Shown here piece after piece: positions 1 to 206 of a DNA stretch of 206 nucleotides. Source of the DNA: Escherichia coli. GTDB lineage: Bacteria; Pseudomonadota; Gammaproteobacteria; Enterobacterales; Enterobacteriaceae. The notes beneath the pieces were generated by a model that ran no database searches, had not been told where the DNA came from, and worked only from the letters and a program-made list of their open reading frames with translations. The DNA lies in assembly GCF_003334255.1 (NCBI RefSeq), contig NZ_QOWU01000284.1. One strand, given 5' to 3'. The position numbers and the translations under genes are program-made. Numbering within the stretch: the first letter of the stretch is position 1; each line of letters opens with the position of its first letter.

Positions 1-206
1 TTCAACCGGCAGGTGCCGATCAGCCCGTACAACAGTGCACCACGCTCGCCGCCGTGATCGCTACCGAAGAACACGTAATTTTTCTTTCCGAGACAGACTG
101 CACGAAGCGCTCTTTCCGCTGTGTTATTGTCCGCCTCCGCCAGACCGTCATCACAGAAGTTGCACAACGCAACCCAGTGCTTCCTGATATACCGGAACGC
201 ATCTCT
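1..206 (-). CDS. IS66-family transposase (TnpC/orf3-type DDE transposase), internal fragment; partial at both ends. Codon phase: first complete codon is 206..204, last complete codon is 5..3.
   Basis: Seen in sequence: the reverse-complement frame starting at position 206 has 68 sense codons with no stop and no Met, translating to RDAFRYIRKHWVALCNFCDDGLAEADNNTAERALRAVCLGKKNYVFFGSDHGGERGALLYGLIGTCRL. Established knowledge: the blocks DNNxAERALR, G(K/R)KN(W/Y)xFxGSDxGGER and LIGTC are conserved in the C-terminal part of the catalytic region of IS66-family transposases. No homology search was run. The gene is conventionally called tnpC in three-ORF IS66 elements, but I cannot identify the specific IS, so the symbol is left empty. 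Confidence 0.85.
1..206 (-). mobile_element. Internal portion of an IS66-family insertion sequence; element ends, inverted repeats and target-site duplication lie outside the window.
   Basis: Inference from the transposase CDS spanning the window. No terminal inverted repeat or direct repeat is visible in the window, so completeness and boundaries cannot be assessed. Confidence 0.7.

Follow-up and report, generated by a model that had tools for sequence, protein, structure and literature searches.

This locus raises the question of which of its reading frames, if any, encodes a protein, and what that protein belongs to. The window, by which we mean the whole stretch of Escherichia coli DNA that was analysed (206 bases, G+C 55%), contains two stop-free frames by six-frame translation: one on the minus strand, phased from position 206 and 68 codons long, which translates as RDAFRYIRKHWVALCNFCDDGLAEADNNTAERALRAVCLGKKNYVFFGSDHGGERGALLYGLIGTCRL, and frame 3 of the plus strand. 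A mechanical ORF list for the same window held a 60-aa ORF on the minus strand and a 50-aa ORF on the plus strand, and no others (Table 1). The original prediction held that the minus-strand frame from 206 was open over all 68 codons and that the 60-aa ORF was read in another frame of that strand; translation agrees with both statements. It also guessed correctly why the longer frame had gone unlisted: the list omits ORFs that run off either end of the source, and the tnpC frame, with start and stop codons both outside the window, is missing from it for this reason. The plus-strand frame 3, which is likewise open from end to end, was not mentioned.

Taking all of the evidence below together, none of which contradicts this assignment, the window almost certainly lies inside tnpC, the largest gene (1,614 nt) and the last of the three in the IS66-family element ISEc43, with the minus-strand frame from position 206 as the tnpC frame. 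The 68-aa peptide matched the NCBIfam profile NF033517 ("IS66 family transposase") with an E value of 3.6e-22 and 79 bits, over profile positions 305-371 of 387, and it matched the Pfam model PF03050 (DDE_Tnp_IS66), the type of profile against which the reading was to be checked, at E 8.3e-16 over model positions 231-283 of 284. The 79 bits fall below the whole-protein cutoff of NF033517 (180 bits) because the window holds only 68 of the 537 residues, or 13% of the protein; a full-length TnpC with an identical segment scored 448 bits against the same cutoff. Three other frames were tested (the 60-aa ORF and both plus-strand translations), and none gave an NCBIfam match even at E <= 10, so that no frame tested offers the better match that would have counted against the reading. 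A scan of both strands of the window against Rfam at E <= 1 found no RNA family. By these profile matches, we assign the window peptide to the IS66 family transposases (TnpC).

At the DNA level, megablast found the 206 bases, in full and at 100% identity, in numerous chromosomes and plasmids of E. coli as well as in some plasmids of Salmonella; at this search level 3,081 of the 5,426 complete E. coli genomes gave a match, as did 1,870 PLSDB plasmids. Under the 100% matches, the RefSeq annotation on the opposite strand is "IS66-like element ISEc43 family transposase". In the chromosome of E. coli O104:H4 FDAARGOS_349 (locus L001), for example, the window occupies positions 4001-4206 of a region whose tnpC coding sequence runs from 3889 to 5502 on the minus strand; 5502 and 4206 differ by a multiple of 3, and the peptide is an exact match for residues 433-500 of the 537-aa TnpC. 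The codons of tnpC thus run from position 206 down to 3, and bases 2-1 of the window begin codon 501. The ISEc43 tnpC (RefSeq WP_000080172.1 / WP_001392052.1) has the same strand, the same phase and 100% nucleotide identity over the 206 bases, and no difference from the window is detectable over this 13% of the gene. The name ISEc43 is taken here from the RefSeq/PGAP annotation and not from a direct ISfinder comparison.

These results bear out the placement of the window inside an IS66-family transposase gene, both through the NF033517 and PF03050 matches and through the identity to annotated tnpC, and the predicted C-terminal position is also correct, with the peptide lying within the C-terminal fifth of TnpC. 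The annotation that had been proposed, a partial transposase coding sequence in place of the 60-aa ORF, is the right one: the 60-aa frame has no family match and a poor ratio of synonymous to non-synonymous changes (33 to 198). The correct annotation is therefore a partial coding sequence on the minus strand, codon start 206, incomplete at both ends, for an ISEc43 IS66-family transposase.

Table 1. Features of the window and of one complete ISEc43 locus (L010); coordinates are those of the window unless L010 is given.
Feature	Location	Strand	Basis
Partial tnpC coding sequence (ISEc43, IS66 family, DDE transposase)	1..206	-	Translation; 100% identity and phase relative to WP_000080172.1; NCBIfam and Pfam matches; codon-position test
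C-terminal end of the DDE_Tnp_IS66 catalytic domain (aa 434-486)	45..203	-	Pfam model positions 231-283 of 284
DNNTAER motif (aa 458-464)	111..131	-	Family conservation
GKKNYVFFGS motif (aa 472-481; family consensus GRKNWLFaGS), IS66 transposase signature	60..89	-	Family conservation
LIGTCRL, first seven residues (aa 494-500) of DDE_Tnp_IS66_C	3..23	-	Pfam scan of full-length protein
60-aa ORF of the list, out of frame with tnpC, spurious	20..202	-	No family match; stops and substitutions
Antisense frame open throughout, by-product of the coding strand	3..206	+	No NCBIfam match; substitution pattern
50-aa GTG ORF of the list, antisense to tnpC, spurious	35..187	+	No family match; 13 synonymous vs 218 non-synonymous
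85-aa antisense ORF	L010 2970-3227	+	Extension of the window's open plus-strand frame
240-aa antisense ORF over the 5' part of tnpC and tnpB	L010 4146-4868	+	No NCBIfam match

ISEc43, a named mobile element, is common in the chromosomes and plasmids of E. coli, Shigella, Salmonella and Klebsiella. For plasmid records such as NZ_CP024227.1, the gene table of the plasmid collection shows "none" under the match where RefSeq shows "ISEc43 family transposase"; an entry of this kind comes from gaps in that table and does not mean that the gene is absent.

We examined complete copies of the element for the features of an IS66 insertion, all of which lie outside the window. The complete copies are 2,541 bp long and carry the genes tnpA (144 aa), tnpB (116 aa) and tnpC (537 aa) in this order, an arrangement found in every complete matching locus (L002, L005 and L008-L011). 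TnpB scored 119 bits against NF033819 (cutoff 50), and TnpA scored 68 bits against NF047595, just under the cutoff of 74. The termini are imperfect inverted repeats that start with GTAAGCG (GTAAGCGTCAA... and GTAAGCGTAAA...), and on the element the window covers positions 2194-2399, at a distance of 143-348 bp from the end nearer tnpC. An 8-bp target duplication was looked for at the copies in L001 and L002 and was absent from both, which suggests rearrangement after insertion. We then chose two chromosomes with a single copy, L010 and L011, for the same check, and in these two independent insertions found perfect 8-bp duplications, CGATTTAG (L010) and AAATAAGT (L011). The complete copies thus show the three-gene layout, the GTAAGCG ends and the 8-bp duplication of IS66 elements, and an 8-bp duplication has been published for ISEc43 in SGI1-B-Ec1 (PMC6531882).

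In L010 (the E. coli LS4 chromosome), the ISEc43 copy with its duplication lies between IS1 transposase fragments at 2509-2856 and 5400-5755, and was apparently inserted into an IS1 element. In L001, the copy at 3889-6313 forms part of a mosaic of IS fragments beside the pic autotransporter gene. In L002, the ISEc43 copy is adjoined by a frameshifted transposase pseudogene (6394-6892, minus strand) with an annotated "AL1L pseudoknot", which is unrelated to the window.

The window could come from a truncated, interrupted or decayed copy of ISEc43 or of another IS66 element, in which case it would be transposase-derived without belonging to a working gene in the source genome. IS66 remnants are common, and partial IS66 transposase pseudogenes stand beside the intact copy in both L001 and L002; tnpB is annotated as a pseudogene in L001, and the copies in these two loci are the ones that have no target duplication. 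At least 80% of the window, moreover, is covered in only 630 of the 4,342 matching E. coli records. Many of these partial matches are, however, related but different IS66-family elements, and the window itself is 100% identical to copies in which tnpC is annotated as intact, with neither a stop nor a frameshift. We therefore regard a decayed source as unlikely, although it keeps some weight: the intactness of the sampled copy is the sole real uncertainty.

A second alternative, that the window derives from an IS66-family element other than ISEc43, has very little to recommend it. The candidates ISEc23, ISEc22 and ISKpn24 have the three-gene layout of ISEc43, and in the same region of the same gene share with the window the motifs DNNxAE, G(K/R)KN and FFGSDHGGERGALLY. 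They differ mainly at the third base of codons and in the N-terminal third of the peptide, and by ISfinder convention isoforms of one element have at least 95% nucleotide identity. ISEc23, the next named relative, is 84.7% identical to the window, and ISEc22 and ISKpn24 are about 72-74% identical, as against 100% over 206 nt for the copies annotated as ISEc43. The window consequently falls within the isoform range of ISEc43.

The open minus-strand frame is not itself evidence for the tnpC call. In 5,000 mononucleotide shuffles of the window, at least one fully open frame appeared in 36% and two or more in 5%, and openness by itself was therefore rejected as support. The call is carried instead by homology, by the 100% DNA identity in the right phase, and by the pattern of substitutions over codon positions. 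For the last of these we compared the window with the homologous 206 bases of seven relatives (66-88% nucleotide identity), which comprised ISEc23, ISEc22, ISKpn24 and unnamed copies. The eight sequences align without gaps, and the tnpC frame is open in 8 of 8. Variable columns fall at codon positions 1, 2 and 3 of this frame in the numbers 25, 20 and 52 (chi-square p 7.5e-5), and half of the codon changes in it are synonymous (112 of 222, against 110 non-synonymous), compared with only 13-33 synonymous changes in four of the five other frames. Judged from these aligned sequences, purifying, protein-level selection acts on the tnpC frame only.

The same alignment disposes of the remaining frames. 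An antisense overlapping protein encoded by the plus-strand frame 3-206 is scarcely credible: this frame is open across the window and in 7 of the 8 homologues, and in complete copies it belongs to an 85-aa ORF that ends just past the window, but neither it nor the extended ORF has an NCBIfam match, its changes are 28 synonymous to 194 non-synonymous with an amino acid identity of 0.59, and open frames of this length occur by chance in the 36% of shuffles noted above. There is equally next to no chance that the 60-aa ORF, which lies in the +1 frame relative to tnpC and was picked up by the ORF finder with an ATG and a stop in the window, is a real gene or one overlapping tnpC, given that it has no family match, that its frame, with 2 stops in the window, has 3-4 in the seven homologues, that just 33 of its 231 changed codons are synonymous, with an amino acid identity of 0.58, and that its sequence is rich in Arg, Ser and Thr, as expected of an off-frame reading. 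The 60-aa ORF, the 50-aa ORF and the open plus-strand frame are non-coding by-products, and the 240-aa antisense ORF of L010 is probably another off-strand artefact.

With the window placed in the ISEc43 tnpC, we considered which part of the transposase it encodes. Full-length TnpC contains, in order, the Pfam domains LZ_Tnp_IS66 (60-130, an N-terminal coiled coil/leucine zipper), zf-IS66 (138-182), DDE_Tnp_IS66 (196-486) and DDE_Tnp_IS66_C (494-530). This is the domain order of an IS66 TnpC; the window takes in no more than the final part of the third domain and the first residues of the fourth. Among 1.84 billion cluster representatives searched, 43,949 relatives were found at E <= 0.001, and conservation was measured in an alignment of 90 full-length family representatives with about 35% identity. 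Among these 90, R220, D268, C355, H358 and R404 are invariant (100%), and D332 (99%) and E463 (98%) come close to this. The window contains the conserved positions A435, Y438, G453, D458, N459, E463, G472, 473, N475, F478, G480 and A489. They include D458 (92%), N459 (91%) and E463 of the DNNTAER motif, and G472 (92%), N475 (97%), F478 (93%) and G480 (97%) of GKKNYVFFGS, in which position 473 is R in 92% of the family and K in the TnpC of ISEc43. The characteristic IS66 motifs that had been noticed in the peptide are hence real features of the family, conserved as DNNxAER and G(R/K)KNxLFxGS. The putative DDE triad of IS66 transposases and their CwAH motif are likewise present by conservation, the latter as CWAH at amino acids 355-358, between the second D and the E; only E463, encoded by the GAA codon at window positions 116-114 (minus strand), falls in the window. 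No paper that defines the catalytic residues turned up in a search of the open literature on IS66 transposases. Majorek et al. (PMC3985635) assign IS66 transposases to the RNase H-like superfamily.

We modelled TnpC (aa 196-500 of the full-length protein encoded at L010 2892-4502, minus strand) with AlphaFold2, using the alignment of 90 representatives, and obtained a confident model with a mean pLDDT of 92.7 and a pTM of 0.80. In the model, D268 is on strand 264-276, the first strand of the core, and D332 comes just after strand 328-330; C355 and H358 are at the start of a helical insertion, whose helices run over 356-451, and E463 follows the insertion domain, close to the N-terminal end of helix 460-475. 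The part encoded by the window is predicted to form the two helices (431-451) that close the alpha-helical insertion domain, a loop, helix 460-475 and a short strand.

A Foldseek search of the PDB with this model gave only four significant matches, all of them complexes of the ISCth4 transposase (E 1.7e-8 to 7.5e-6, probability 1.00). ISCth4 TnpA, of the IS256 family (PDB 6xgx and 6xg8), has an all-alpha insertion, led by a CxxH motif, within its RNase H-like core, as is predicted for TnpC. Its triad is D175/D241/E348, and C262/H265 form the CxxH motif that opens the insertion domain at 261-325 (PMC7780238). The spacing is also similar, with D-64-D-23-CxxH-108-E in TnpC and D-66-D-21-CxxH-86-E in ISCth4, and ISCth4, like ISEc43, makes 8-bp target duplications (PMC7780238). 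On the strength of conservation, predicted secondary-structure order and spacing, we infer E463 to be the third catalytic residue of a putative D268/D332/E463 triad.

There are nevertheless clear differences between the two proteins. Their identity in the structural alignment is 13-16%; the N-terminal domains differ, TnpC having a leucine zipper and a zinc finger; and ISCth4 has one ORF only, while in IS66 the accessory genes tnpA and tnpB are required as well. Searches of the PDB with the TnpC sequence and with the 90-sequence profile found no match to ISCth4 and no detectable solved relative of IS66, the matches being at chance level only (cathepsin G, GCN4 and TDP2). Membership of TnpC in the IS256 family was accordingly rejected, as there is no sequence match to ISCth4 or to any PDB chain and the resemblance is at the level of the fold only.

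From the predicted architecture we can propose what the segment does in transposition. The window would encode the end of the all-alpha insertion domain and the helix that bears E463, and this residue, together with D268 and D332 outside the window, would coordinate the metal ions that cleave the element ends. The cleaved ends would then be joined to a staggered 8-bp target; in DDE transposases generally, repair of the target stagger yields the 8-bp duplication. The C355-x-x-H358 motif may assist catalysis, as in the IS256/ISCth4, MULE and hAT transposases. The DDE triad has been described as binding divalent metal ions, hydrolysing the 3' ends of the element and transferring them to staggered target phosphates (PMC7780238). 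It is possible, if on balance doubtful, that IS66 elements move by copy-out/paste-in through a circular intermediate, by analogy with ISCth4, because TnpC is predicted to have the ISCth4 architecture of a core, a CxxH-led insertion and then the glutamate. [quoted passage not shown]

The assignment of the window to tnpC is already known; it is an ordinary result that leaves no room for novelty, and one further fragment of the common named element ISEc43 adds nothing new biologically. What the locus means is a matter of annotation only. An ORF finder limited to the window drops the true frame, which crosses both ends, and lists spurious off-frame ORFs in its place, and short windows in long genes therefore need translated homology searches.
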